Positions 14,625 through 40,932 of a DNA stretch of 64,000 nt are shown here, piece by piece. Numbering within the stretch: position 1 is the first letter of the stretch; every line of letters starts with the position of its first letter. Location: contig NW_025964223.1 in the NCBI RefSeq assembly GCF_023055435.1, forward strand, positions 44,020,001 to 44,084,000. The letters run 5' to 3'. The notes below the pieces were generated by a model. The model had not been told where the DNA came from, made no database searches, and saw only the letters and a program-made list of their open reading frames with translations. A program made the position numbers and the translations under genes. The stretch is from Haliotis rufescens. Lineage: Eukaryota.

Positions 14625-17599
14625 ATGGACGTATTGTTGACTCTCGTTGTCCTCACACTGCCGTCAGTAAGCTCAGGTAAGATTTCAGCCATATACTAGC
14701 AACTTATACACTGTGTAACAGGCGCTCAGTCAACATTGCTCGTCATGTGTCAGTGATCTATATATACTGGTTTTGTACGTATGCCACCCAGACATTAGGT
14801 TATCTATCGGTGTGTAAACTATCTACAAGTGAGTAGATGTCCGAGTTGCTTATAAAGACCCCTGATAGTTTACACGTTTTTATTTGTTGAACGAGTTCAT
14901 TGCAGTACATATGCTAAGTGTTCTATAAAATTTGAGACTCTATGTGTTGTTAGTCAGAGAACATAATAAGATCTAATAAAATGTGTAATGGGCGCTCAGT
15001 CAAGCAGTCAACGAGGACCATAAGCCACTGTGTTTGACATCAGTATATTTTTACCCAACGGGTTAGAAATAACGGCATTCGTAAATATCGTATGTCCACT
15101 CAAGAGAATGCTCATCTTATATCAACTGAATTGTTTTACGATATAAGCACTAGAGGTTTTAGAACTCGGGACGTATGAATTGTATGTGGTTTTGTAAGTA
15201 CATTTATATGTGAAGAGGCTTGGGACAATAATCCAAAAATGTGTATCTGGGTTTCTGTTTTATGTGTACTTGAAGTAATGTACCTCCATGTAACTGTTGG
15301 GTGTGGTAATTAAATCATAACGGTTGATTTACTGTCAAGGTCTACAGACCTGCTCTTCTGGGACCGAGAACAGCTCTTCTGGGACCGAGACCAGCTCTAA
15401 CCAAGTCATACTGGATGTGTCTTCAGCTCAGATCAACACAGGGGGGAAGGATGTGTTCCTGTAGGCTGACTGTTTCACAGACAGCACAGGTGGAGATGTT
15501 CCCTATTGGCTGGTCACAACAGTGTGATACATACATGACTATACAGAGGTGGAAAACGAGTACACAGTGTACAAATGGTGTTGTTCAAACTCTAACACTG
15601 TCTAAAACTGTCCCCACGGGTGAGGAGATTTGGATACTGGTGGTGGCTGCAAGACCTGGAGCCAGACTGTTGGGGCAGCTGCTGCTCAAGCTTAAGTCAT
15701 CATCAGGTATGTACACACACACCTCAGATTAAATAAAAATGGTTCTATCATCATCAATCAAATAGACATCTGATCATGACATGTGTTTACTTCCATGTAT
15801 GTTATATTCAGATCCCATCACTTGAAATATAATAATCATGATTCAATGACAGCACTTAAATATTGAGGAGTAGTTTGTGTCCTGAAGCTTTTATTAAGTC
15901 AAGTAACATGCTCAATGAAGATACTCGGTATGGGGTTGAGGTATGGCATCAACAAAGTATAGCTAAACAAAGTAATATGACAAGACCCAAATGCAATGTA
16001 GAACATGTGTGCCTCAATTAAACTAAAGTTATTGTGACATAAATAGCAGTTTGGCTGGGGAATCAAGGGCGGATCCAGCATTTTTAAAAGGGAGGGTTCC
16101 AAAATATCAAAACGCTCTCAGATAAATTTCTGCCTACAACATACTACATTTGGTTTTAAACAGACAAGCTTTCTTTAGAGTGCTTTGAGCCAAACACCAA
16201 CGGTTCTACAACCAATACTCCCTCAACAACCATCCAAACAACCCAGCCAATGACAATGACTGCTGATGCAATTACATCCTTATTAACAACTACAAAGGGA
16301 TGGACCAGACCTAAGCCGAATACAATCAATACTCCCTCAACAACCCAAACAACCCAGCCAATGACAACAACTGCTGAGGCAATTAATTACATCCTTATTT
16401 ACAACTGCAAAGGGATGGACCAGACTAAAACCTAACAGGCGCACAGAATCATTCACAGCTATTCCATACGAAAGTCACAGTCAACGTCAAAGTGAAACGT
16501 CTCCTGATTCTTTCAGTAATAGACCTAATATGGCTAACTGTACTTGCAAGAGTGTTCAACCATGTGGTGCAGTTGGCCTATCTGATGGCAGTCAGGATGT
16601 TTTCCCAAGTATGACATTTAACACATGAGTGAGTGAGTGAGTCTGTTTGATATTACGCTGCTTTCAGCAATATTCCAACAATATCAAGGCGGGGGACACC
16701 AGAAATGTGGTTCACACATTGTACCCATGTCAGGAATCGAACTCGGGCGTGACGAGTGAACGCTTTAACCACTAGGCTACCTGACCACTCTTTAACACTA
16801 TGATGGAATTTATGGTTTCAATCGAAGCTTTCTATGTCCCTTATATTAATCAATCAGATTCCACTTCTCTTATTACCTGCACTTGCTTCAAATAAAAAGA
16901 AGGCGCCTAGTCAAGACGATCTGATCGATAATCAAAATCTATATTGTAATCAAACGGTTTTTTTCTCTCGAGGTGCATCAAATAATGTGAGCACCTTGAT
17001 TAAAATCATAAAAAGATTTGGAAAAGATTTGGAAAATATCTGTCAATGCCCAGCTGATGGTACACAACATTTTGGTCTTGACAATCATTTTGTTTATAAT
17101 TACAGGTGACATATTTGCTGCAGGAATAGCCACTGGTGGCGGAGTGGCCATTATAGTTCAAGTCATCTACTTCTTCATCATAAAGTATGGACCATTCACA
17201 GATTTTCCATTTATTCTCAATACATCCACAAAAGGGTGTTACAAAAAATATTCATTGTATATGTCATTTACTAGCAATATGATGTATGTAAGATATATGT
17301 GTACATTTCACAAACATCATTCCTGTCGTGTTCATTTTGTGAAATGTGCTATAGATGAAAACAATAATTCTATGTCAATACTAGTGAAGGTTCCTTTGTC
17401 TCACATCATGCGTATAACTCTGACATATTCCAGACCAAGATGCAGGACATCCTGCCGTAAGAGTCCTGCTGACTTCCCTGTGTCTGAGGACCATCCCACG
17501 TATGCTGGCTTCAGCAACAGAGCTGTGGATACAGGCAACAACTATGATGTACTTAGTCCTGCACAGGTCATCACCAACCCCTACACGAATGAACAATAG
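14625..17599 (+). pseudogene. Receptor gene 1: type I membrane protein (Cys ectodomain, Thr-rich stalk, TM, Tyr-motif tail) with two frameshifts
   Basis: Exons 14625-14676 (MDVLLTLVVLTLPSVSS, donor gtaaga), 15340-15706 (Cys domain, clearly paralogous to 26586-26945), 16164-~16515 (KLSLECFEPN + stalk with a duplicated T/P repeat), 17106-17184 (TM IFAAGIATGGGVAIIVQVIYFFII) and 17434-17599 (tail with YAGF, YDVL, NPY). Lesions: an extra G in the G6 run at 15441-15446 and a 4-nt AATT duplication at ~16381-16388. Corrected length ~336 aa. The exon 3 donor is the least certain boundary. Confidence 0.75.
16625..16790 (-). mobile_element. SINE family B
   Basis: Reverse complement of family B with (GAGT)n. 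Confidence 0.75.
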
Positions 17600-23609: not shown

Positions 23610-26600
23610 ATGGGGATCTCTCACTGTGGAGGAGGGCAGGGTGTCACTTGGCTGATTCTGCTGCTTATGTACATCTTTAGGGATGTCACATCAGGTAGGA
23701 AAAACACACTTCACAGATGTGATTTGTAAATACAAAAATGATTATTTTATTTACTTCTGTAAGGATATAATAGACATACATAAAAGTACATCTCTATGTA
23801 TCTGGTGATGTTGAAATGTTGGTTATTTAAAGCATATACCCAATTATAATTATTGATATCAGTTTAAGGTGATGAATGTTTCATATAGATATTGTAATGG
23901 CGTATATTTATATTATACTTTCTATAAACCATATCGTCAAAGGAAGCAGCTTTTATATTCTATAGTATACACATTATATACAGAGTTCCAAATCAACTTG
24001 TATCCTGTGGACTAACACATTTTAATGAAAAATCTCCCTACAATCATAATAATAGTAATAACATAACAATAAAAAATCTCCCCCGTTTCAATACACACAT
24101 ATATACACAAAATTTGTTTAAAATAGATAATTGACAGAAAAATCACCATCCTTACTCGTAACCTATTACTGACACTTGAAAGATTTGTTCAACAACTCAG
24201 ATAGGAGAGGGAGGTAGCCAGGAATTGTAACACTATATTCTTTATGTTTAATGCAAGAACATCATGGTTAAGTCTATTGCCCTTCTTGGCATGTTCAGAT
24301 CATTAGATGAACAGATACATTCAGATCTGTGTATAACAATAACATTACAGGCAGTATCTTTTGATGGTTTCTATCTCCATCATGTTATTGGGCCAGGTGA
24401 CAATGTCAGGATACCATTAGCCATCTATTATGAACTAGAGACAGAATGAGTTTGGTTTAACAGTGCTTTACACAGTATTTCAGTTATATCACAGCATGTC
24501 AGATTGATGCTGGAGAAAAGCCTGTTCAGTCTTAAACATTTACCACTTTGGTGAAACCCATGAGCACCTATTGAATGATACAGTTTGGTGGAGTTCAGGC
24601 AATCTTATTAATCTTTTTCTCATTTCAAGAATAATTAAACATGTCCACATGAATAAAACCTTTGAAACTCACCTCTAAATATTTCCATCCCCATTTTCAA
24701 ACTTATCCTAAAGCCAAATAGATATGTCTTCAAGACATATGATTCGGCATTATGCAACATGCATATTGTGTTCATTATACATTCAGTCAGATTTTCCTCT
24801 TCATTGTTGTAACCTGGTGATTCTATTTTGTTTGAAGTCTATGATGTCATACATTATATTTTGACATTATTATGGGCATGGGTGGATGATTTATCTTAGG
24901 CACTGCAATTTGGTGTGCAGAGTTGCATCTCTAAGTTGGGCCAGGAACTTATGTTTATGGGTTTGAATCTGAGATTCACCCTCATTCTTATATTTCATGG
25001 TTTGTCACCACTATTCCCTTGCATCACTGATGATGTTAGGAATTAGATAATATATTTGTTCAACCTGATGTTGGTGATGACAAATAATGAATGACATATC
25101 TTCCATTGTTTGATATCACAAACAGTTCTCAAGATGAGAAAGATTGAGAATGAACTTACAAAAAGGTACATTTAACAGATAGTGCCTAACAGTAAAGCCA
25201 AATTTGATTGTAAAGAAATAATTGGCTTTTTGAGACTTGGACAGTGAACCGTGCTGTGATTAAATGTACATGTATTTGAGGTTCTGCCAAGAGACTAAAT
25301 ATGACCAGCCGTGTCTACATGTTATTGTAACCAGATATACCCATATCCACATTTATACAGCACATTTTAGCCTTTGATGCCCAGTTATGTTTCCTATTCT
25401 TTTCATAGACAAACATCAACATGTAAATATTTTCTAGGGTATCTTGCTCTTGCCATTTAATATTTCAACCCAATATATATTATGTTATTACCCTTAATAA
25501 ACTGAAACCTTAACATTCACCATAAACCACTGGATTTCATAAGCTAGATTTTACACACAAAAACGATCTACATGCATACAAATATGACTTTCAGTGACAT
25601 CAAAATGTCCCAATTGAAAGGTTTCAGAGCCATACAATAAAATAAGCCTGATGTTTTTATCAAATATCTAAAAAAACATGTCAAACATTACCCCAAACCT
25701 TCCAAATTCAGGATATCCCAAATAAAACGGTCTTGGTTTGTTGCTCTTGACTGTTATGTAATGACCAGTTGGATTTATTTATCTATTCTAGACAGGGTAC
25801 ACTATTTGTATCTACTACTGTTGCACAGTGGTATATAAACTGTAACCGTAACTAAAATGTGAACATCCCTTAAAATTACTGTTGTATGTGGGGAACTTAA
25901 CTCTCTTGATATTGATGAAGTAATTCAGAAAATAAATGTGGGGAATAAAATGTGAATATCTGCTAAAAAAAATGAAGAAACATAAATGTGACAAAATTAA
26001 CTAAATATGTTTTCAGATCTATTTGGTGCTATCAAACCTATCTGTCTATCAATATAGTCTAGCGCTCTACTGTAGCTCGCTATGGTTGCACCCTATTGCG
26101 ATGACCTAATGAATGATTTCAATAAATGTGTTCTACCTACGTCCGACCTTGACAAGCTATAAAATAAATCTGTTTAGTGTAGGTCTTATCACGAGGACAT
26201 ATCATGCAAATCTGTCCTTACCTCAAGTGAGTCCAATTTGCATCGTTTTGCACATGCTATGTTATACTTACGTTTTCTCTCCAATGCAAGTTGCATTCCA
26301 GCTGTGTTCTAGCTATCTGTTCATGCTTAAAATGTCTTCAAACCTATTACTATACTTTATTTAAACTATACTAAATTGAGAGATAGTTTTGACAATTCAT
26401 AAAAGTCCTCCAGTAACTTTATTTGCTTCTATTATAAAGTACTGTCCTTGAGAATGTGACTATTTCATCCACAAACAGAAGTAAAAACAATATCATATAT
26501 GACTGGTACAACACAGCAAAGATTGGATAATTTATTAATATGTCCCTATGAGGTTTATGATAAAATTACTTTTCTACTCTCCAAGATCTCCAGACATGTT

Positions 26601-29600
26601 CCTCTGGGACAGAGACCACCACAAACCAAATCATTTTGGGTGTGTCTTCAACACAGACCAACACTGAGGGATGGATGTGTTCCTGTAGACTGACAGTGTC
26701 ACAGACATTACAGGTGGAGATGTTCCTTGTGGATAGGAGCTGGTCTCAAGATTGTTCAACGTACATGACTATACAGAAGTGGAAAACTGATACACAGTGT
26801 AGAGGGAATACTCCTGTGCAACCTCCACCTGCACTGGTTAAGAACGTCACCAGAAGTGATGAAATCTGGATACTACTAGTGGGTTCAAGTGCTGAGACCA
26901 AAAAACTGTTTGGAAAGCTGCAGTTCAAATTTAAGCAACCACAAGGTAAGAAAGTATGAGGTATGATTAAACAAACAACCATGAACTAGCTACACAATAA
27001 GAAAAATGACATTGAATGAAGTTTCAAAATTCACATTTAAAGTATCATGTTGTAGCCAGAGGATTTGTAACTCATGTTTGGGCATTAGCAACATGATTTC
27101 ATAGATCACATTCAAGGGCTAAAATGATTTTGTTTGCTTGTTTATTGTTGAACGCTGTGCTCAGAAATATTCAAGCTACATGATGGTGGTCTGTAAGGAA
27201 ATCAAGTGATTGACATCATGAGCATTGATCTATACAAAACGATAGGATGACATGCACCAACCAAGTCTGTGAGCCTGACCACCTGATCACGTTAGTCGCC
27301 TCTGATGACAAGCATTGGTTGCTGAAGACCAATGTTAACTTGGATCTTCAAAAGTAAATGAACTCAAAGATTAAGATGGAAAACAAAGTCCAATTTTAAA
27401 CTAAACAGGTAGCCTTTAACTGAAACACAAATAAGATACACAGATATTATCACATGTTATGCCAAAGGTGAGGCATTGGCTACCAAACTGTGTCTACTCG
27501 AGCCCATAATAACAACACAAGATGAGAGTGGATTAAATGGCAGAGGGTGTGCATGTGGTAGTGGGCTACAAAACTACACGAAAAATTTACCGTTAGCAGT
27601 GGTGATTAGCTGATACCGCTGCCCAGCCCTGATAGCATATTTAATTATAAGAAATGCTACTGTTGCTTGGCAACTACCACGCTGCCAAAAGCTGTATCCG
27701 CTGCTGGCCAAAGGAAGCTACCACTGCCCGGCCCCAGGTATTAGTTTAGAAGCAAGTTAATTTGTTACAAGCAGGGTCACCCACAAGAACCATGCCACAA
27801 AGCATCAAACTGCTACACAGACATAGCATAGCCGCCCAGCTTGCCTAGATGGGGAAAACACTGACCTTTGGAGATACCATCCCCCAATTAGTGCAAAACA
27901 AGTGCCAGGGCATGCCATAAATTGTGGCTGAGGTGTATGTCCTGTCTGATGCCAGAATCCAGACCTGTCAACCCCTCATCATGACAATTTGGGAGATTTG
28001 CCTTCAAAATGTGGGAGATATGACTCCAAAGGGGGAGATTATTAAAAAAGGGCAATAACACTTGACAAAGATAATGTACAAGTTTAATTATAGCTCAGAT
28101 AAAGGCATCATATCACATCATATCACACTGGAAAAAGGTCATTTAACAAATAAAAGAAACAATAGCAAAATTCCATATGGCAGTGCTCAAATAAACATTT
28201 AACTGTCTCAAATGTGCTGTGAATTGTACAGTTTTGTAGCACATTTAGCTTTGCACAAGAGGTCTTTGCTGAATGTGCAGCTGTAGCATGGGTCTCTGCA
28301 GTTCACTTTACAACTCAGCAGAGCACAGACCGTGAGAATTATCCAGTTCTGATCAGCCCTCTGTGTTTATTTTCCTGACCATGGAAAACAATCTCTCGGT
28401 GTCAGCATTGGAATTTGGAATGAGACAGAGCTTGATGGCCAGGGCAGACAGATACTTAAATCTTCTGGTGCCATCAAGAGTCTTCTGTTTCTGCAGCTTA
28501 ATCCAGTACTGCTCTGGCTTTAGTGTGATTGAAGGCAGCACCTCTTCTGGTGTCAGGCTGTACTCCAGGAACTCTTCTGTCAGTTCATCTGTCAACGGAA
28601 ATGCTATGGCAGAAGCACAGGCCAGGACTGAAACATTAGGAACATATGTATATTATATAAATATCTTAATGGCTACATCATGTAATATTTAAATTACATA
28701 TGCATTGTAAAATAACTATGAAAATTAATAAATAGATGAAATATTAATTGTACATGGCTATACCTGAGTCTGATGTGAAAGCCTGCTTTTTTTCAGGGTC
28801 TGCGTTGATCCATTCAATATGTTCAGGACTTCAACATTGTTGTCACAGTTTCCTGATAGAAGAGCCTGATGTTTCTGAAATAAAGAGGTTGCACTAATTA
28901 GTTTTTAATACACATTTTATGTGATATAATGCAGACATAATAACATATGCTCCATATTTCAGAATATTAAAAAATAATAAACTTATTTCATGAACCTGTT
29001 GATCAGATCAAGATCATCCAATCTGGAAATGAACTCCCTTGTTCTTATGCCTACTGCCATGATGCTGCCATGATGCTGGTTGTCTTTTTCAGTGAAGGTT
29101 ACTTCTGTTAGTGGGTGTGTCTTTATGATGTCAATCTTGACAAACTTTGCCAGATACTTCCTGAGAAGATTGTGCATTTCTGTGTACATGAAGCACACCT
29201 TGACTTCATCAGCCTCAAAAAGATAATAGATTTTTAGCTAATTAATGACATTAAGGAAATTAATTAAATTACTATCAATGATTACCCACCTCATCCAGTT
29301 TTATTATCACATATTTCATTTCTCACCAACATCACTTTACAGGGATATACACATTATTTATTATAAAAGAAATGTACCTGGAATGTTGTGTTGAATTCAT
29401 TCAGTGGTGGCAGAATGAACTCCATGAAGAGGAAGTACAGCTTTGTCATCTCATCATTGTTAAGGTAGCTGCAGCAGGTCTTTACCCTTCCAGGTTTCTC
29501 AACGTCTTCATGGCTTGTGAAGTATGATTTAAGTGCTGGCCACTGCTCAAGGGTCCGCTTGACACATCTCTCCAAGCTGAGCCATCTTGTCTGAACGTGT

Positions 29601-32600
29601 TTCAGGATCCTGTCTGGCTCCACATCGCAGAACTCCTGAAAGGACTTGTAGAGCTCTGTCCTCTTTGTACTACAAACAATAAAACACACTGCAGTGATAT
29701 TCATCCAATATTTGATGACAATGTGTTAATGTCTTATTGATTTAATACACATCAATGATTTATGAAAGTTGATGTTTAACAAGAATAGTGTATCATAAGC
29801 AAGTATAGTACCTTAGGTGAAAATGAAAGTGAATCTCAATAAGCATGTGGTCCAGAGAGAGCGGTAGTTTCTTGAGACCAGACTTGATTACAAGGTTTGC
29901 CAGGTGGCAAATACAGCCAAGGTCAAAAACTGCCGGCTGCCTCTCCCTAATCCTTGACAGAACAGAGTTGTGTCGTCCAATTATCACACTTGCATTGTCT
30001 GAACAGTAGGCTATCAGGTTCTTCCAATCAAGACCACGGTCTCTGTAAGTAGCAATTAGTAGCAGGTGTCATTCAATTAGGATTAACTCAAAATCAAAGC
30101 AAAGTCCAAACTAATTTCAAAACAAACATTGCGCCATGATCAGTTTCTCCTCATTGTTTGTTATTTATAGAACACAAAAGCAGTTGCCAAGTTCTTATTG
30201 TCGCCGCGATAATTAGACTCATCCACAAGCAAACTGAACGATCCTTGGCACATATCCGTAACTTCAGTGTCAAAGGTGGGGGCAAGGGCATTCTTTACGA
30301 TCATGGTCGTTTTTGTCTTTCCCCACTTGAATTGTTTCGCAATATCGCTGTCCGGAAACATCTTAGGTACCATCATGGTAAAGTGGTCGGCGAAACTAAA
30401 TGACAAGATGTGTTCTGTGACCATCATAGCAAACAAGGTTTCTGATTCAACCACTTTGGATGCGGCTGGGTTTTCCACACGTGTGAAGGACGTTATCAGT
30501 TGAAAGGATGAAATCTCCTTTGCAACCTGACAATGTTTTTGCACTCTTAATATGTCGCTTCACGTCATAATATCCTCCAGAACAAATGTTGATATAAACT
30601 TTGCAAAGCGTACACAGGACTTCTGACTCACATTTCCCTCGAGCAAGGAACGGATGGTCTTTCTTCCAACTTTCTTGAAACTTGCAGGCGTATTCCTTCT
30701 TTTTCAAAGTCGATCCTGGTGTTGTATCCATTGGGCGTTTGGTTGCCATAATTAAGACAATACGAATTTCTTAACGAAACGCCTTTATAAAGCACACGTA
30801 CACGTGTGTTTGTTTGGCAATAAACACTGAAAAGCTTTCAGTAATCATCGGGTGTTACGAAAAGCTCTGAGTGTTACACGGAGAAAGGCGATTGCAATCA
30901 ACTTTCATCTGAAAACTTTCTCGTAGATTTCCGTATTCGTCAACTTCCTGTTGTTTTTTTTAACCCGCGGAACAATGCATGCGCATTCTTAGTTATTGAA
31001 AAATGCTGTTTTGCGGGAGAAATCGTCTCTAATGCGGGAGACTGGGAGATTTCATCAAATTGAGTCTCCCGCAAAATGCGGGAGGGTTGACAGGTCTGAG
31101 AATCTGGGGATGTGGCTCCATTGTTCCGCCCAAGCTCTTTCACTCAGTTAGCAAGCCTGCAGTTAATGTTCTTTCGCATCCCCCCGATCTTGCCTTGGCA
31201 GCATTGAGGATATGATGATCCTGGTGTCGGGAAGTTGGAGTTGTATCCGGAGGATGGGTTACCACGTCAAGGTAGAGTTGGCTGCCCTTGACCGTGCACA
31301 GGTCATTAGAGCCCCTGTGAATGATGAGCACTCTGGGGCTGCACTGAGTCTCTTTGACCTGTGCATATAAGATGGCATCCTGCTCCCCTTCCACCTAATT
31401 CCACCTTGCACCAGCCATAGCATCCTCGGTTGGTCCGGACTGCTGCCCTTCAAATGCAAGTACTGACGTGCTCAGGCCATGTAGCTGGAGCCCACCATCC
31501 AAACTGTAAACAATAAGGGTAGTAAATACCATGTATACAATATGTAAATTAGTTGTGTTGCATTACATTTGTTGTTAATTGTAGGCATTGTAACAATCAT
31601 TGTAAAGCATTGATGCCTGTTTGGTATGTGGACCATGTGTTTGCAGACAGGGATTGTTACAGGAGTCTAGCAGCTTCTTGCCTCAGATAAGCCATATGTT
31701 GCACGATATAGGTATGGGGTTCTGGTACGCGTATGGTGCTACTGCCTGCAAGCATTTGAGCTGAAACCTCGAGAGCATCGGCAATAGTGTTAGCAGTGAT
31801 ACAAACATACTTTGTCTTGAACAGAATATTATATAGGAGGCACTGCAGGATTTGGCGGCGGAGTAGGCTCATCACTCTGGGGGCCTTGGTAGACTGTTTG
31901 TTTATTATTGCTACGACGGCTTGGTTGTCGCAGTAGAAGAGGGCCTTTTTGTTTGCTAGTTGCTTGCCCCCAAAGTTGGATGGCCAACGTGATGGGAACA
32001 GCTGTAGTAGAGTCAAGTCGCATGTAGTTCCATCTGTAACCGACTGGTTTGGCCATCAGCCGCTAAACCTGCTGGTAGGTCCCGAAGCCACCCCAACCGG
32101 CTGTGTCTGTAAACAGCTGAAGAAAATCGCTGTCAATCCACAGTTGATCCTGAAACACTGAAATGCCATTATAACCGGTGAGAAATGTTAACCACATTTG
32201 TTAATCTTCCTTGACCCAGTTGGTAATCCTAATGTGGTGAAATGGTTGCTTGCCTTTGCTAGGCAGGTTGATTAGCCTAAGGCTGAAGGCCATTACCTTT
32301 GGGGAAGCAGTGCACATAGTTAAGCTGGCCTATGAAAGAATGTAGGGCCCTTTTGCATATGTACACATCCGTTGAGTTGTCTGAGGAGTGGCTGGAGCCA
32401 ACTGTGCGCCCCATAAGGAAGTCATCCAGGTAATGCATTAACCATTGCAAGAAGGTACTAAATGTTTCAAATAAGGCACAAGATATGGAACAGCAGAGGT
32501 TGAACATTTAAGAAAAATACTACTTGACCAAGGGCAAGTGTGACCAACATTCTTATTTGCCCCATTTTAAAATGTTACATCTACAGAACCGAGAATGAGA

Positions 32601-35600
32601 GATACAGTGTTCTGTCGCTATTGCTTCCCTCAATATAGCGCTAACTCGGTTACAGCACACAGTAACACATGGCCCACAAAATTTACTTACATATTAAATA
32701 TTTGCAAGCTCTACACTGACACAATTTTTTTTCCCATCTAAAAAAACACTATCAGCTGATCACCGCATGCACGTAACACGGGAAATACCAGTCAACAGAG
32801 ACCATATCCGAACTGAAATATGCAGTTTAATCCCATTATTATACTATCTGGTTATAAAAAAGGTGTTCATTGTTTATCTCTACTTATGTTTGTGATATAT
32901 ATTACTTATTTTATTCAAACTTTCATTCAATATTTGTTAACATTCATTTTGGTGAAATGCATTTCACTACCCAAGAATGGCTATAAAAATGTGCGTTAAC
33001 AGAATACCATACGCATTGTTTAGCATCTTGCTGACAACAAACACTCAGAAAAACAACAAAGTTTTTCAACATTACGAAACGCCACGCCCATCCGAAAATG
33101 AGCGTCTGCGAGCCATTGGTATGCTTGAAGCAGGATCGAGTCAACATGATGTTGCAAGACAATTTAATGTCCACAAAAACACCATTTGGTGTTTATGGCA
33201 ACGTTGGCAACAGACGAATGAAGTCAGAGATCATACTTGGACTGGCAGGCCACATGTAACCAATAATCGACAAGACAACTGGATTCGAACAACACACCTA
33301 CGAAATCGATTCCAGCCAGCAACAGTGACTGCAAGAAGCATCCCTGGCCCTCGACAAATATCTTCACAAACCGTATGTCGTCGCCTCAGATGTGCAGGGA
33401 TTGTCACCAGAAGACCCGCCAGACGTCCCATTTTGACAGGAAACCACCATCAAGCACGTCTACAGCGGCGCAGACTGCATCTACGCTGGACGGCCATGCA
33501 GTGGGGACAAGTTCCTATTCACTGACGAGTCTTGTTTTCACCTCAGCCACAGCAATGGATGGATTCGAGAGGGCCGGCGTCGGGGTGAACATTACGTCAA
33601 TCATTGTCATGGAAGATCGGTTTGGGGGCGGCAGTGTTATGGTATGGGGTGGGATTACAGCAAGACAGAGGAACCGTTTGATAGTGGTAGAGGGAAAAAT
33701 CGATGGACAGCCCTACCGCGACAAGATCATCGGACCTGTTGTTCTACCGTTATTGCGCCGTCATGGCCCAGGCATTACCTTTCAACATGACAACGCCCGG
33801 CCTCATATTGCTCGAAATGTTCAGGATTCGCTTGAACAAAAGAATGTGAATGTCATCCACTGGATGGTTGGCTCCCCTGATCTCTCACCAATCGAGCACA
33901 TGTGGGATCAGATGGATCGGCGCCTACGACGACAACCACGTGTTCCACAGACGCTCCAGGAACTTCAGAACATGCTCCAGCAGATATGGACAGATATCCC
34001 ACAGGACTTTGTGCGAAGCCTGGTCCATTCCATGAGACGAAGATGTGTTGCTTGCATCGCAACCAGAGGTGGACACACACGCTATTGATTTGTAATTTGA
34101 CATTTTGGCATGTTCAGGTTTTTTTTATGAAATCACACATTTTCTGAAGTCAGTATGGCAAACTAAACCATTTGAACACTTACAGGAGTCATTTATCTGG
34201 TGCAAACCGAAGTTGTTTCAGATTTGGTAAAAAACATAATTTTGCATTAAATCTTATTCAATGTCACATGAACTTTTGTTGTTCAGTATATATCATAAAT
34301 GGCATACTTTGACTTGTTAAAAGTCATATTTGTTGTAGTTAGACTTATGTGTCAACAAAGTTTCCACGATCCATAGTGTGATTCTCGATGGTGACTGGTG
34401 TATTCAAATAAAATATTTCATCAATTAAGCTACACCTAACGAAGTTTCAAAAGTCAGCACTAGACCTACCACGCATTACAATTTCCAAGTAATGTAGTCA
34501 ACTGTCATTTATCCAAGAAGCTTGTGCCATATATGGAAGTGTTACTCCTATATATTGATGAAACAAGCTATCGAATCCCATTGACTGGTGTAACTGTATG
34601 CAAATTAGATTGCCAGTCTGGGACACAAGCAAAATATTAGCGAATGAAATGTCATAGCGACTGATTTATGACTACCATTGTCTGAAGTATATTTGACTCC
34701 AAAGGCAAATTACCCTGTAGCCATGTCTCCATAACTTAATTGTCATTACGTTTTAGGCGCTAATCCCTGTTGCTAATCCTCACCAACATTTCATTGTATA
34801 TTGACTGACAGCCAACCTGGGCTACTTTATCACTTCCCGTTAATTACTGTTATTTATAGTATGACATCTATTGCCTTAACTGTTCATCCCCCCCAGAAGT
34901 CCCATGTCCAGATCTAAGTCATTGCCTTTCCATTGTTGTTCATTAGTATATATGTGCTACAATTACACTGTTACTTGGGTGTTAGTCAAGCTTGGTATTC
35001 CGAGTGCTGGTGTAGGGACGACCTCGAGCAGGGTGTGCCGCTTGTAGGAAAGGCCCTGAGATGAGCTGGAGCTCTGCTCACCTCTTGTACGCCTGAGCTG
35101 GAAGGCCCACTCATTGCTGTGTTTGTGTTGTCAGAGCAGGTATTCCGCTCATTGTGCAATTGTTGTTTATTGTTTACACGTTGTGCATAAAGCGTTCCGG
35201 GACAGTGATATCGATTTTGTCCTTTATTCCCCGAAGACCCCAAGACCTAATGTTGTACATATCAGCATTGTTTAGTGCATTGTATGCTTGTGTCATACAC
35301 ACAGCAGTATCATGATTCATATGCACCTTTATCAGCTATATTTAACTATTATTGTGCACTGGTGATTTTTCTTTCAATAGATGTATTTTTTTACCAAATG
35401 GTCACCCACAGGTTTTCACCTGACAAGATATTAAAAAAAACCAAATGATAAAACAAATGTTGAAGACATTAGTCAAGAATGTGTACGTTTGCCCTACCTA
35501 ATGACCAGTAGATGGCGTGTGTAGACTGGAAAACAATTACATTCATTAATAAAGATTATCCATCATTTTGATAGCCACTGAGTTATGGTCTATATTTTCA

Positions 35601-38600
35601 AGATGAAATGTAACAATGTTTCTGGCACTACCTCACTAAGACTAAGAATCTTCTTCAATATGCTTAACAGAAAATTGTTACACTATGGTGTCAACATGGC
35701 GGTATATAAGAATCAGTACTGGTAATATCAGAATCCATGGAACATTGACATTTTGTCATCAAATATCTGTGTGAAATAATACATAAGAGTATTTCTTTCT
35801 CCATTGCAGCAGGCAAGCTGAACATTGAGTGCTTTGAGCTAAACATGAACAGTTCTACAACAACAGCTCCTTCAACAACATCAACAACAACTGTAACTAC
35901 AGAGAAACCAACATCTTCATCCCAGCCTACCACTGTCACAGAGATTCCAAGACCAACAAACAGCACACCTCAAAGACAGACCACTTCTCCCAGTGCTGCT
36001 ACTGTAAGAACTTCTGGATCATCTACATGGTCAGGAGGATCTCCTGGAGCATCTACAGGGTCAGCAGGAAAATCTACTCAAGCTCCTCCTTCACCAGACA
36101 GCAATAAAAAGGATTCATCAATTAACTTCCCAGGTATTAATGCCTTACATATTCACAAACCAACTCTATTCAGTGACGAAAAGAGCAATCAGTAAGCCTG
36201 ATATTGTTTATACATATATATTCTTCAAAAAAAGAAACTTGACATAGATGTAAAACCACTTTTTGCCAAATATCTAAAATAATTACATTAAATGAGAACC
36301 AAATAAGTCAAACAGAAAGATAATCTATAATTCATGAAAACACATGCAAAGCACATAAACGTAGTGTTTGGGGATCAATTTTACAGCTTCATCCAAACGC
36401 AACCGCCTGTAAAAAACGTGCAGCACAGGTCCTTCATTTAGGCATGCAGGCCCCCCTGCTGAATGGGTATAAAAATCCACATCAACGGCTGTTCATACAG
36501 TCCTTATAAAGGCAGTAGAGGCGGTGACAGAATGCCAAGACTGAATGCAGCTCAATGGAACAATGCCATTGGGAGATTACAAGCTGGAGCAACTCAGCAA
36601 GAAGTGGCCAGGCACTTTGGCATATCCAGACAGACAATCTCCGCACTGTGGACCCGATACAACAACACCAACAGAGTTGACGACAGACCAAGGTCAGGAA
36701 GACCAAGGGTGACAACCCAAGCACAAGATCGATACATCCGGCTGCGACACCTCCGAGACCGCACTACCACTGCCACGTCTACAACCACACAGATCCCTGG
36801 GGTACACAGAATATCAGTTCAAACGGTACGCAACAGACTGAGGGAGGCTGGACTTTTGCACGAAGACCTGTCCGACGTCATGCACTGACCCCACGTCATC
36901 TGACGGACCGTCTGCTTTGGTGCCAACAGAGGGTTAGATGGGCACGTGCAAGGTGGAGAAATGTACTGTTTACTGACGAGTCCCGTTTCCTACTCACACG
37001 TGCTGATGGGCACGCACGTGTCTACAGACGTCGGGGTGAACCTTACGCCCCCAAATGTCTGCAGCAGGTTGTCCCATTTGGCGGCGGGAGTGTCATGGTA
37101 TGGCCCGGAATTCATCACGGTGGTAGGACGCCTCTCGTGCACGTGGCAGGTGCATTTACAGGTGTGCGTTACAGAGACTTGATCCTACAGCCTTATGTTC
37201 TTCCTCACGTCAACATTCATGGCGGACAGTTCCAGCAGGACAACTCTCAACCGCATATTGCACGTGTTTGTCAGGACTTTCTACAGCACAACAACATCCA
37301 GACATTACCTTGGCCAGCCCGGTCACCAGATTTGTCCCCGATTGAGCATCTGTGGGACGAGTTGGATCAACGCGTTCGCAGAAGATATCCACCGCCCCAA
37401 ACACTTCCGGCGCTTCTTGATGCACTTCAGCATGAATGGTAGCACATCCAACAGCGTGTTATTGACAACTTGATTGCATCTATGGGTCGTCGGTGTCAAG
37501 CAGTGATTGATGCACGTGGTGGGCACAACAGATACTGACATTTTCTGTACCCCGGGGACATTAACTGTATCGTGTACCTGTGTCTGTCTAGGTGACACAA
37601 TTAATGTTTTGAACATTGTGTACACTGATCTTCAAACAGTGTTTCAATTATGGTTTCTGTGTCCTACTTTGAAACAGAGTATATATCTAAAAGCACATAT
37701 GAAGTCACCACTTCAGCACTGGTTTGACTATTGTATATGACTGTAGATAAGCCAATCTCAGAGTTACGCAAAGGAATCTTGATCTTTGAAATCTGTATCA
37801 AAATATTATGTCCTGTACATAAGCATTTCAAAGTCATCTATAATATATATATATCAAATAATCTGTATTTGTAAAAGTGGCAAAAATCTATTGTTTTAAC
37901 GTATGTGGCACATTACAATGTATACTACTCAAAGAAGTTAAAGATCACATGTTCTTTAAATTCTTTTGTGTAGAATAGATGGCAAGAGTATTCACACCCA
38001 CATTTTCTTGTTTGAATTGTGTTCATTTCATGCAACAAAGGTATAAATATTTCTAAAGCATGGATGTTTACCTTACAGCGGCAGCAGTAGCAGGTGGTAT
38101 TGGAGGAGGTCTGCTGCTCATCCTGATCATCGTCATCGCTGTCACATGCTACAGGTCAGAAGAATCATACTGTTTACTGCAATTTTTTATGTTATTACCT
38201 TTATTTCAATTGTGTGTATCCATTTAGAATTTGGATCATTTTTACTCAATGGAAAGCATCATTGTCAGTTCAGATTACATCCAGTGGAGCCTTCATCTCA
38301 TATTTAAGTTAATAATTTGTTCCTGCATGAAACTGTATCTATGAAAGTAGTTGGCCATATGTCATTCACAAAATAAATTAAAAATTTGCATTGTTCCACT
38401 GGTTATGTATCAGAATAAAACCTTTTATCCAAATCTTATTTTTTATCCCTCCATCATATGTGGAATGTATCTGTCTTGACAGGAGAAGTCGGGATAATGA
38501 TCAAAGGATTCTAGAAGTTGTCCCAAATACAAGCAAACAACACAGTGGCTGTGTGAACCATTCCTATGAAAATGAGGAACCTTTATCCCACGAAAATGAT

Positions 38601-39302
38601 CTCTACCATTCTAGTGGAGCATATAACAAGCACCCAGAAGAACAGAAGCTGGACAAAGAGGAAGACACAATCCAGAAACAAGACACATCTACAGTCTCAG
38701 GAGCTCCTTCAGCTGAATCTGGTGGTGGGATGAAACCTTCAGATGATGTGGCTGTTCCAGGACCTGCCCCAATGTCCAGTGATATCTCTGACATGTATGC
38801 ACCTGTGGATGAAGTTCAAGCAGGAAATCCTGTGGTCGTAGACAGTGACATGTATGCAGCTGTGGATGAAGTTCAGGCAGGAAATCCTATGGTCGTAGAC
38901 AGTGACCTGCAAGATACTGGTGATGACATTCACGGTGAACAAGCATCAAATGGATTACCTGGCACCGATGACCTGTATGCAGTTGTGAACAAGCCTGGAG
39001 GACAACCTACAGCAACAGATGAACCAGGTTCACCGGACGGCATAGTCAGTCCATCTGGAGACATCTACGCTGTTGTGGACAAGTCAAAGCCAGTTGAGGA
39101 TTCTGCTACTGATGGTGACGTGTATGCTGTAGTAGACAAATCCAGAAAGCAAATCAAGGATCACAATGGTTCTGGTCAGGGAGATGATTTATCAGCTGAT
39201 GACCAGGAAGCAGCTCTCAGCATGATGAACTCTGCATTAGAGGATGGGTTGGATGATACTACACCACCAGCATATCCAACAGTCCAGTCCACTGACCTCT
39301 AG
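23610..39302 (+). CDS. Receptor gene 2: type I membrane protein, ~554 aa (signal, Cys ectodomain, mucin-like stalk, TM, long acidic tail with repeated YAxV motifs, C-terminal STDL)
   Basis: Exons 23610-23694 (MGISHCGGGQGVTWLILLLMYIFRDVTS, gtagga), 26586-26945 (DLQTCSSG...WMCSCRL...KQPQ, gtaaga), 35810/35813-36133 (GKLNIECFE + S/T/P stalk, gtatta), 38079-38154 (TM AVAGGIGGGLLLILIIVIAVTCY, gtcaga) and 38483-39302 (tail). Intron phases 1,1,1,2 match gene 1; total 1665 nt, open frame. Confidence 0.85.
27130..27350 (-). mobile_element. SINE family A
   Basis: Reverse complement of family A. Confidence 0.7.
27600..32510 (-). mobile_element. Degenerate DIRS/Ngaro-type retrotransposon, split by a hAT insertion
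   Basis: Minus strand: RT (CALFETFSTFLQW..HYLDDFL, ~32400-32500), RNase H (LFTDTAGWGGFG; FYCDNQAVVAIINK; ANTIADAL, ~31760-32130) and an SGNH-like ORF (WMVGSS; LIIHRGSNDL, ~31150-31500). No recombinase seen; the left boundary is approximate. Confidence 0.7.
27960..31098 (-). mobile_element. hAT-superfamily DNA transposon (3139 bp), intron-containing defective transposase, 6-bp TSD
   Basis: TIRs cagacctgtcaaccc / gggttgacaggtctg; TSD agaatc at 27954-27959 and 31099-31104. Transposase pieces: N-terminal Zn finger (CTLC...H, from 30749), LVDESN, CICHLANL, TRWLS, SNADTERLFS. Frameshift near 30540. Confidence 0.9.
32840..34290 (+). mobile_element. Tc1-like DNA transposon (DD34E), frameshifted
   Basis: HTH region RAIGMLEAG..QHDVARQFNV, TDES, GGGSVMVWGGI, FQHDNARPH...SPDLSPIEH (34 residues between D and E), ending GGHTRY* at 34088. 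Termini degenerate. Confidence 0.9.
34880..35258 (+). mobile_element. Possible solo LTR
   Basis: TG...CA-bounded, GC-richer block with a late ATAAA-like motif; no convincing TSD found. Confidence 0.25.
36218..37682 (+). mobile_element. Second Tc1-like DNA transposon (DD34E), defective, in intron 3 of receptor gene 2
   Basis: ORF from 36532 (MPRLNAAQWNNAIGRLQAG) with a frameshift near 36860, FTDESRF, QDNSQPH...SPDLSPIEH, an in-frame stop at 37440, ending GGHNRY* at 37538. Confidence 0.9.
38790..38906 (+). repeat. 57-bp coding tandem duplication (DMYAxVDEVQAGNPxVVDS x2)
   Basis: Units start at 38790 and 38847. Confidence 0.95.
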
Positions 39303-40932
39303 GGACATTCAAAAGCTGAAATGCCCTGATATGTGTTTTTCGTGCTACAAGATCCATGAAGATGGAGCAGGCTGTTCCCATGAACAGTTGGTAACATTTG
39401 AAAACACATTATTAAATCAATCAAGTTGGTTACCCTTATAATGTAGAAATATTATGTTGGTTTACAAATGACACTATTAGCAATGTACTACAATCCCTGA
39501 AGGTTAGTGCATCTGAAAATGCGTAATGTCATGTGACTTACTTAGAAAAGGGGGTTCATATGCCATGGTACAACTCGCTGTAAAGAGTTGTGTCCCCTTA
39601 CTAGATGCCAGTATCTCATGGTTGTGGGTTTAGAAATTCAAATTCGTCTATTTATGACCTTTCATTTGTTCACAACATACCCATTACTGTGGGTTTCACC
39701 TAAGCCATAAATGTCTACCCTGCACATTAAACTGACACTGAGCTACCATTCCAAAAGATTGTGAACCCAACACATTGGCTGACTTTGAAAAGTTAGATTA
39801 CATTAGTGTACCCCAATGGATATATTTTGAATGGTTACCTCCCATTTGTCAGCTTGAAAGTTCGACAAGTCATTGTGATAGCCCACTGAGTCCTTAGAAT
39901 GAAGGTAGACACATAGCTGCTTTGTAGAAAAAAGAACTTCCTGGTTGAATTACATAAAGCAAATGTTCTCATATATGAACTTAAGCTTGATAATCTGTTT
40001 AAGTTTGAAATATATGGTCACCATGACAAAAGTCACCTTCCAAATTCCATGTATGTAGGATGTGTCTGGAAAGAAACTGGCCACACAGTTGTGAATATGC
40101 CAGAAGGGGAAAATCATTGACAGATATGAGATCATGTGTAGGCCAAACATCAAACATTATGTAATGCAAAATTATTCAGTTCTGTAAAAAGAAAACATCC
40201 CAGAATAATTGAAAGCAAATAACACTGTCTAGATAATTCATAAATATATTCACAGCATACTCTACAATAGATACAGAAGACTATCCTGACAAACTCAATT
40301 GCCATTTACATCACAATGAATTTAAATTGAATTAAAAATGTTACACTTAACTTTCAATTCTAAGTTATAGGCAAGTAAAGTAAAGCAGTATTTGCAGCAA
40401 AGGGATACATCTACACTAGAAATAAGCTTACATTGTGATTGCCATGTGATAATGTTGTGATGGCCTACAATAGATGTATGACTGAGCCAGGTGATACATA
40501 TGGGATAGATAGGTTGAGCTCCTGCCACATGGTAATTATCCTCGATATGCTTGACAGGAGACAATAATCAGGTGTGAACACCAGGAACATTATAGATGCA
40601 GCCTGTTGCATTCTGTTGATGATATATGTGTCTGCAGCTGGAGCCAGGACATATGAATAGATCTTGATTCAAACAGTGTATAAGGCAACACAATATTGTT
40701 ACAGGAGTGAGACACTTATAATGGGGACTTCTAAGTGTAACTTATTAGATAAGTAATGTAATTTGTCAAAGAAATCTAGCAGAAATTCAGCATCACAGTA
40801 CTATATTTTCTTGTGAATAATTATGTGCACTTGAGTATAACGCATACCATGGGTAAAAGTGTTGGGGAAATTGCTTTTTGATATATTGTGTGCAGTCAAA
40901 ATGTACATTGTGTTGCTTCAGTTGAACAAACA

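Follow-up and report, generated by a model that had tools for sequence, protein, structure and literature searches.

A long-tail receptor-like gene with non-ITIM tyrosine motifs beside short-tail paralogues with ITAM-like tails in the abalone Haliotis rufescens

Pairs of inhibitory and activating receptors are well known in vertebrates and have been proposed in Botryllus and Hydractinia. Conversion of the ligand-binding exon is described as a mark of the vertebrate paired receptors (PMC5112662, PMC5701461). The immunoreceptor tyrosine-based inhibitory motif (ITIM) has the consensus S/I/V/L-x-Y-x-x-I/V/L, and the table in PMC7226588 that gives it still lists among the ITIMs the NLYAAV site of LILRB1, which has a polar residue at -2; according to PMC10533923, Csk is recruited to LILRB1 mainly via Y562. 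The AVYAQV site of catfish IpLITR 1.1b is described as binding Csk and inhibiting without SHP-1 (PMC4810170). Among invertebrates, ITIM/hemITAM receptors are reported in Botryllus (PMC12065747) and an ITIM receptor in the oyster (PMC11841013), and the resistance of Biomphalaria to schistosomes is described as controlled by clusters of fast-evolving single-pass genes (PMC7494358, PMC11426442). Here we describe a window of 64,000 nucleotides of Haliotis rufescens DNA (contig NW_025964223.1, positions 44,020,001 to 44,084,000), to which all coordinates without a contig handle refer. It contains a gene for a membrane protein with a long cytoplasmic tail, hereafter the long-tail gene, which lies downstream of eight short-tail paralogues and may be the inhibitory member of a paired-receptor-like cluster.

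A sequence search with the tail retrieved a 100% identical protein of 554 amino acids from H. rufescens (LOC124140007, RefSeq) and one orthologue each from H. cracherodii, H. rubra and H. asinina; RefSeq labels the abalone family members as uncharacterized or mucin-like. The gene was modelled as five exons on the forward strand with GT-AG ends in every intron, and the translation of this model was an exact match to P0001 (LOC124140007). Exon 1 (23610-23694) contains the start codon and the signal peptide, exon 2 (26586-26945) encodes a predicted cysteine-containing beta-sandwich of ten strands, which is CUB-like by lead only and without a Pfam hit, exon 3 (35810-36133) encodes the last beta-strand of the ectodomain and a Ser/Thr/Pro-rich stalk, exon 4 (38079-38154) encodes a transmembrane helix with zero charged residues, and exon 5 (38483-39302), which starts at the AG at 38482/38483 and whose open frame closes at the TAG at 39300-39302, encodes the entire cytoplasmic tail. 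The protein is thus laid out as a signal peptide, a beta-sandwich of 130 amino acids, a Ser/Thr stalk, one helix at residues 264-286 and a tail of 272 amino acids that is predicted to be disordered (predicted local distance difference test, pLDDT, below 50, without secondary structure). The sequencing-run evidence comes from 8 of 24 runs containing the locus, none of them registered as RNA. The exon 4/5 junction was spliced in contigs from all four RNA-type runs (three studies), and exons 1, 2 and 3 were found together on one RNA contig. The run records name no RNA, and it is because of these spliced joints in the contigs that we take the long-tail gene to be transcribed. Positions 38483-39302 are the last exon of a spliced type I single-pass membrane protein, and a genome search with the tail as query found no second copy of it.

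A first-pass annotation of the window had described this exon as an acidic cytoplasmic tail with five D-hydrophobic-Y-A-x-V motifs. The tail is indeed acidic (20% Asp plus Glu, with nine tyrosines), and all the elements that had been listed, including SYENE, AYPTV, a 57-bp duplication and STDL, were present where they had been placed. On the forward strand, the motifs are DMYAPV (38790-38807; Tyr387, codon 38796), which is DMYAAV in the three other species, DMYAAV (38847-38864; Tyr406, codon 38853), DLYAVVNK (38970-38993; Tyr447, codon 38976), DIYAVVDK (39060-39083; Tyr477, codon 39066) and DVYAVVDK (39117-39140; Tyr496, codon 39123). They are accompanied by a membrane-proximal G-[C/Y]-V-N-H-S-Y-E-N-E element (38547-38576; SYENE Tyr codon at 38565), by AYPTV (Tyr codon at 39273) and by the C-terminal STDL (39288-39299). 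Class I PDZ ligands are defined by S/T-x-hydrophobic at the C-terminus, and the T-D-L-stop found in all four species fits this class.

Motifs 1 and 2 belong to a tandem duplication of 57 bp (19 amino acids), which together with a decayed third start (DLQ) spans 38789-38926; the repeat as such was located at 38789-38906 (2.1 copies), motif 2 falling in the second copy of the unit. The two full copies agree at 54 of 57 bases, and the decayed third start agrees at 16 of 24. Growth of the array by tandem duplication, as proposed in the first-pass annotation, is accordingly recent and clear for motifs 1 and 2, but a duplication origin of motifs 3-5 lacks support, because around the tyrosine these have 23-24 of 39 bases alike, which is about what the motif itself imposes. 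The pattern D[ILVM]YA.V matched the tail five times; over 50,000 shuffles it averaged 0.0018 matches and never exceeded 2. These odds are overstated because the pattern was set after viewing the sequence and two of the copies stem from a single duplication; conservation in orthologues is the better test. The strict codon pattern D-phi-Y-A-V-V-[DN]-K had three matches in the 1.33-Gb genome, all of them in exon 5, and the control had one.

The first-pass annotation had made its proposal dependent on the conservation of these tyrosines; all three other abalones retain both the motif tyrosines and STDL. There are five motifs in H. rufescens and six in each of the other species, numbers that were reached via separate gains and one loss. 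Where H. rufescens has DLQ and H. cracherodii has DMH, a motif (DMY) is present in H. rubra and H. asinina, which also have one extra copy of the DIYAVV block, and the 19-amino acid unit is present in two copies in H. rufescens and in three full copies in H. cracherodii. When residues 404-440, whose alignment is ambiguous, were set aside, four motif windows showed 28/32 identities in H. rubra and 27/32 in H. asinina, and the remaining tail showed 143/202 and 132/202, respectively. At two positions outside the selection pattern, the 23 motif copies have D at -2 in 21 cases and D or N at +4 in 22. As judged from these alignments, the motifs are conserved above the background of the tail. AYPTV, which had been listed as a tyrosine site, is ASPTI in H. 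rubra and H. asinina and is probably not a site.

The suggestion that the 57-bp repeat makes motif number vary between alleles found no support, since neither a gap nor a joint was seen in any of the four same-species DNA runs or of the two RNA runs spanning the repeat. These four DNA runs come from one study, one of them bridges the repeat with only 27 letters on the left, and contigs lose rare variants; run X12, which carries a different organism code, is interrupted at the repeat with no bridge across it and is uninformative. Exon 5 contains 14 single nucleotide polymorphisms, 8 of which alter a residue, and the 2 that lie within motifs are both synonymous. The change 38551 G>A (runs X6 and X7) converts Cys305 of the assembly into Tyr, the residue found in the three other species. 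The alleles of this small sample thus differ in tyrosine number through a point change and not through the repeat. Just past the stop codon, at 39307-39385, the 3'-untranslated region shows a haplotype with 15 bases deleted and 5 substitutions in all four DNA runs.

Upstream of the long-tail gene, eight tandem paralogues on the same strand extend from G000:C445:43.93 Mb to window positions 14625-17599. Five of these short genes are intact spliced models, and the other three are broken, one by a stop in its signal exon and two by frameshifts in exon 2. They have a related ectodomain and the exon layout in common with the long gene, together with a signal exon, a helix and a tail of about 50-57 amino acids of their own. 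In all five intact tails, YSGL-x10-YD[IT]I is followed by NPY, and YSGL-x10-YD[IT]I is found in seven of the eight overall. Four of the intact tails terminate in YINV, which is a YxN site of the kind bound by Grb2. The consensus of the immunoreceptor tyrosine-based activation motif (ITAM) is YxxI/L-x6-12-YxxI/L in the table of PMC7226588; the intact short tails fit it and are predicted to be of the activating type. In paired receptors, the activating member carries either an ITAM or a charged helix that takes up an adaptor. The nonsynonymous divergence (dN) was 0.074-0.135 between the ectodomains of the five youngest short genes and 0.008-0.032 between six short tails, with similar synonymous divergence (dS), so that the ectodomains of the short genes diverge faster than their tails.

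A mismatch between ectodomain and tail was found when the long genes of H. rufescens and H. cracherodii were compared, since identity reaches 89% over the signal peptide, 100% over the helix and 94% over the tail but 57% over the ectodomain. The ectodomain of the long gene of H. cracherodii is 82% identical to that of one short gene of H. rufescens; as a control, the ectodomains of an orthologous short gene are identical at 128/132 positions between the two species. In a tree of 16 ectodomain rows, the final version of which was made without P0003 (incomplete N-terminus), the long-tail ectodomains never cluster, and a forced clade was rejected by the approximately unbiased test (p 0.015 with two rows, 0.0001 with three). 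Because ectodomain and tail disagree and a long-tail clade is rejected, these data point to a replacement of exon 2 by exchange in at least one lineage. The long ectodomain of H. rufescens is 49-61% identical to the five short ectodomains of this species that were aligned, with dS of 0.36-0.50 to six of them; against seven aligned short rows, the long ectodomain of H. cracherodii is 66-82% identical and that of H. asinina 68-74%.

The ectodomain was predicted to fold as a beta-sandwich of ten strands (pLDDT 74.6). Pfam searches with the protein and the ectodomains gave nothing over the cut-off and no CUB hit, and a sequence search of solved structures with the ectodomain gave 0 matches. Foldseek returned only beta-sandwich matches of low template-modelling score, and VIA-align gave no Z of 8 or above, the best values (7.6 and 7.8) corresponding to non-CUB sandwiches and the CUB chains reaching 5.9-7.1; the tied matches include CUB domains, spermadhesin among them. 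The Atlas language-model neighbours of the ectodomain include CUB clusters at 0.82-0.87, below 0.9. Because the CUB matches tie with other sandwiches, the CUB-like identity of the ectodomain is not established. In a profile search, eight of nine hits of the ectodomain were from Haliotis, and the ninth, the bacterial repeat protein P0014, was dropped as a chance hit. The Atlas search with the tail gave no usable hit, and a homodimer prediction for the ectodomain scored 0.02 with the alignment not used and was counted neither for nor against any reading.

Because the neighbouring short paralogues are ITAM-type, an inhibitory reading of the long tail gains indirectly, and we see an even chance that the long-tail gene is the inhibitory member of a paired-receptor-like cluster that recruits Csk and/or SHP2. 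Ligand binding by the beta-sandwich would cluster the receptor; upon clustering, Src/Abl-type kinases would phosphorylate the acidic-hydrophobic-Tyr motifs, and several sites spaced 19-41 residues apart would provide avidity for SH2 proteins, the pY-A-x-V sites binding Csk and/or SHP2. The kinase preference would be the one given in PMC3561454, Csk binding would follow the precedents of AVYAQV in IpLITR 1.1b (PMC4810170) and of YSSV in Cbp/PAG (PMC3492796), and for SHP2 avidity is reported to come from repeated segments (PMC5408210). The predicted ITAM signal of the short tails would then be opposed, either by Csk shutting off Src-family kinases or by SHP2 removing the ITAM phosphates. The STDL terminus would tether the receptor to a PDZ scaffold, and exchange of exon 2 between long and short genes could keep re-matching the ligand range under pressure from parasites or pathogens. 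Csk and Syk/Shark have a pan-animal distribution. The same is stated for SHP2 in PMC5408210.

Several observations weigh against this inhibitory reading. The canonical ITIM pattern [SIVL]xYxx[IVL] had 0 matches in the tails of all four species, and none of the nine tyrosines of the H. rufescens tail fits it; the first-pass annotation had likewise called the motifs non-canonical, because of the D at -2. The likeness to Csk-binding sites holds in part: with the Csk SH2 consensus pY-[T/A/S]-[K/R/Q/N]-[M/I/V/R], as quoted in PMC4810170, all five motifs agree at +1 and +3, but none has K, R, Q or N at +2. The YSSV site through which Cbp/PAG is described as binding Csk (PMC3492796) is likewise off consensus at +2, and the motifs of other abalone arrays (YAKV, YAQV) match the full Csk consensus. 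What remains of the likeness to EPIYA is hydrophobic-Y-A-x-V only, the core E-P-I/L/V-Y-A being absent and positions -3/-2 being S, D or G followed by D. Moreover, EPIYA-type sites are described as binding SH2 proteins promiscuously (PMC3593179), IpLITR 1.1b is also reported as capable of activating (PMC4810170), and YxxL/I pairs and YxxV sites could fit endocytic or activating roles too. Because the motifs are non-ITIM and misfit the Csk consensus at +2, and because such sites can be promiscuous, the sequence leaves the sign of the signal unfixed. On the side of the ectodomain, the evidence for exchange consists of predicted protein models of other species and not of their DNA, the H. rufescens long row is a long branch, and a first tree was viewed before the test. 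The identities of 49-61% leave the H. rufescens long gene without a close partner, unlike the classical pairs. Positive selection on the ectodomain is no more than suggested, with a dN/dS above 1 in only 3 of 10 young pairs, a ratio based on 4-5.5 synonymous changes. Finally, exon 2 was invariant in the three RNA runs with a piece there, which argues against high allelic polymorphism, although alleles less than 85% alike would escape placement in this comparison.

As an alternative, the long tail may be a positive or mixed phosphotyrosine scaffold like those of CDCP1, Cas or Gab, in which phosphorylation by Src/Abl would recruit kinases or SHP2 and promote adhesion, spreading or growth, and long and short tails would differ in strength or route rather than in sign. 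We regard this as possible, although as a distinctly less probable account. The tail of CDCP1, itself a CUB receptor, docks Src, and the CUB-type leads for the ectodomain and the misfit to Csk at +2 in all five motifs would suit such a function. Acidic and aliphatic residues before the tyrosine are given as a substrate preference of Abl and Src (PMC3561454), and repeated EPIYA-C segments are reported to raise SHP2 binding and to give mitogenic signalling (PMC5408210); the abalone motifs, however, are without the YEEI-type core of Src SH2 sites (YEEI/V in PMC3492796). An ITAM-fitting tail is, moreover, already present in the neighbours. Sites of the Crk/Abl type need Pro at +3 (YxxP), which the motifs do not have. 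Inhibitory and activating functions are usually divided in this way, between a single long gene and numerous short genes that do not last. The same split is given in PMC5112662.

A function in non-immune recognition between cells (gamete, larval, epithelial or neural adhesion) seems unlikely to us; fast change of the ectodomain would then reflect reproductive or relaxed selection, and the tail would signal the state of adhesion through PDZ and SH2 partners. The presence of CUB domains including spermadhesin among the tied fold matches, the invariance of exon 2 in the three RNA runs and the retention of STDL in four of four species agree with it, whereas the birth and death of genes (three of the eight short genes are broken), the ectodomain exchange and the two tail types fit parasite-driven families, as do the gene clusters that control parasite resistance in Biomphalaria (PMC7494358, PMC11426442). 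Least probable in our estimate is that the motifs act as unphosphorylated YxxPhi sorting signals of the AP-2/AP-1 type, or are neutral repeats in a disordered tail; the receptor would then serve recycling or scavenging and would not signal through SH2 proteins. The YxxPhi pattern accommodates YxxV, and the G-Y-x-N-x-x-Y element near the membrane resembles internalisation signals; large duplications and the loss of one tyrosine have also been tolerated by the tail, in which Tyr and Cys segregate at one position. Nevertheless, Val is a poor +3 residue for AP-2, sorting would require neither so constant a context (D at -2, A at +1, D/N at +4) nor the upkeep of 5-6 copies, and the motif windows are conserved above the rest of the tail.

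The inhibitory reading can be extended, tentatively and with more doubt than confidence, to the proposal that abalones, and perhaps molluscs, possess a paired-receptor system independent of that of vertebrates and built on a non-Ig, CUB-like ectodomain. In such a system, D-hydrophobic-Y-A-x-V-(x-K) would be a Csk-recruiting stand-in for the ITIM, reused across unrelated immunoglobulin (Ig) and CUB-like arrays; turnover of the repeats would tune the number of motifs, and exchange of exons with the ITAM neighbours would reset ligand specificity. The looser pattern D-phi-Y-A-x-V-x-K had 139 matches genome-wide against 49 for the control. Among the 100 matches listed, 43 were DNA repeats and 57 non-repeat, so the genome-wide excess was not upheld once repeats were removed, which also counts against the inhibitory reading. 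Thirty-three of the 57 sit in nine local groups, several of which are tandem arrays. At 12 hand-picked loci, a membrane-helix exon on the same strand was found upstream in 7 and none within 10 kb in 5; where ectodomains were seen at these loci, L057 has an Ig domain (Pfam Ig_3 1.6e-8) and L058 a weak match to one, and L052 and L055 have CUB-like exons and a stalk. From these comparisons, the motif looks like a reusable element of abalone receptor tails.

Other loci with this element were noted. At L052, L053, L054, L057, L058 and L060 (G000 C2, C90 and C157), D-phi-Y-A-[KQ]-V-x-K follows a membrane helix, several of these loci being tandem arrays; the ectodomains of L060 and L058 are probably Ig. 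Two genes at 43.90 Mb (L022:704-1756 and L022:8403-9344) have near-duplicate tails with acidic GG[DE]YED[VIM]D repeats that end in D[VI]YAKVKK-stop, and they add a third kind of tail to this cluster. The gene at L055 (G000:C445:47.07-47.08 Mb, minus strand) stands alone; its layout is the same, its helix is very similar, and its tail contains DMYALVNK and DIYAKVDK, so that it may reflect the ancestral long-tail type. An array of a 59-60-bp unit at G000:C556:225164-226850 carries the codon pattern of the motif in at least 28 copies and is probably non-coding, since the unit length shifts the frame.

Within the cluster, the nearest short-tail paralogue (14625-17599, forward strand), the last of the eight, is broken by a frameshift in exon 2 and carries two duplications, of 21 bp in exon 2 and of 115 bp in the stalk exon; its tail contains YAGF, YDVL and NPY, a tail type shared by the H. 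rubra relatives P0012 and P0017. Behind the intact exon 2, six short genes contain a decayed partial second one (e.g. G000:C445:43953295-43953453), and in one relative from H. rubra the ectodomain is present twice in full (P0005, P0006). Seven further genes on the same strand, at G000:C445:43.89-44.14 Mb and including window positions 60196-61885, have a CUB-like exon recognized by its cysteine spacing, most of them with a stalk and helix exon, which brings such genes in the region to about 16; the homology of these seven to the core family is at best weak. Nine more distant CUB-like exons were considered as family homologues and were retained as look-alikes only, one of the nine being clearly above shuffles (E 0.003) and two borderline. 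At 60536-61331 lie about 12 copies of a 64-bp unit that takes in the last part of the upstream CUB-like exon together with the splice donor of this exon. DNA-transposon remnants with broken open reading frames occupy parts of introns 2 and 3 of the long-tail gene, at 28353-30770 (minus strand), 32956-34088 and 36463-37442, of which, by translation, one is presumably hAT-like and two Tc1/mariner-like.

A literature search, with most subscription papers beyond its reach, found no paper on this abalone family. If the inhibitory reading is true, the locus would provide a compact and testable case from a mollusc, in which the ectodomain is new and the brake motif is not an ITIM, and many unannotated mollusc receptors could be relabelled, since standard ITIM scans would overlook this motif. 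Because two close species differ sharply in the ectodomain of this one gene, the locus is also a candidate for differences in disease resistance between abalone species.

Compared with the CUB single-pass proteins Kremen1, neuropilin and CDCP1, the abalone protein is alike in its predicted ten-strand beta-sandwich and cysteine spacing, with CUB chains tied at Z 6.1-7.1, but it has neither a Pfam CUB hit nor a solved sequence relative, and other sandwiches score equal or better. With Cbp/PAG1, Pragmin, p140Cap and the bacterial EPIYA repeats, as described in PMC3492796, PMC3593179, PMC3561454 and PMC5408210, the tail has in common a disordered acidic region, acidic-x-hydrophobic-Y-A/S-x-V sites and tandem growth like that of EPIYA segments. 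It differs from these Csk scaffolds and EPIYA proteins in being without the EPIYA pentamer and without homology, and in belonging to a host receptor with its own ectodomain, whereas Pragmin is cytoplasmic. PAG has almost no ectodomain.

The PTC2/GRC genes of Biomphalaria, as described in PMC7494358 and PMC11426442, are similar as tandem, fast-evolving single-pass genes without known domains, although high allelic polymorphism was not seen in abalone exon 2 (three RNA runs). The descriptions of PTC2 mention no tail motifs, and the hits of the abalone ectodomain profile were Haliotis proteins and one bacterial repeat protein only. The fester co-receptors (FcoR) of Botryllus (PMC12065747) and oyster CgNCAM1 (PMC11841013) have in common with the abalone set the ITIM/hemITAM logic in invertebrates, theirs being described on Ig domains with canonical ITIMs. 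IpLITR 1.1b and LILRB1 are alike in their hydrophobic-Y-A-x-V tail sites and clustered family, and Csk, proposed here, is their effector; as described in PMC4810170, PMC7226588 and PMC10533923, they also have true ITIMs and Ig domains, whereas the five abalone sites are all non-ITIM, with D at -2 and a hydrophobic residue at +2. In contrast to the vertebrate paired receptors, the abalone ectodomain is a predicted beta-sandwich, neither Ig nor lectin, found by sequence only in Haliotis (eight of nine hits), there is no canonical ITIM, one long gene stands beside five intact short ones with 49-61% ectodomain identity, and the opposite signalling is predicted only. Clustered genes, related ectodomains, two tail types, exchange of the ligand exon and broken members are nevertheless common to the abalone genes and to those of these receptors whose activating tail is intrinsic (CEACAM1/CEACAM3, the Xenopus ceacams and, for conversion, Siglec-11/16), as they are described in PMC5112662 and PMC5701461. 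The abalone set would work like paired receptors yet lacks a canonical ITIM, and so it is placed beside that group rather than filed as a member of it.

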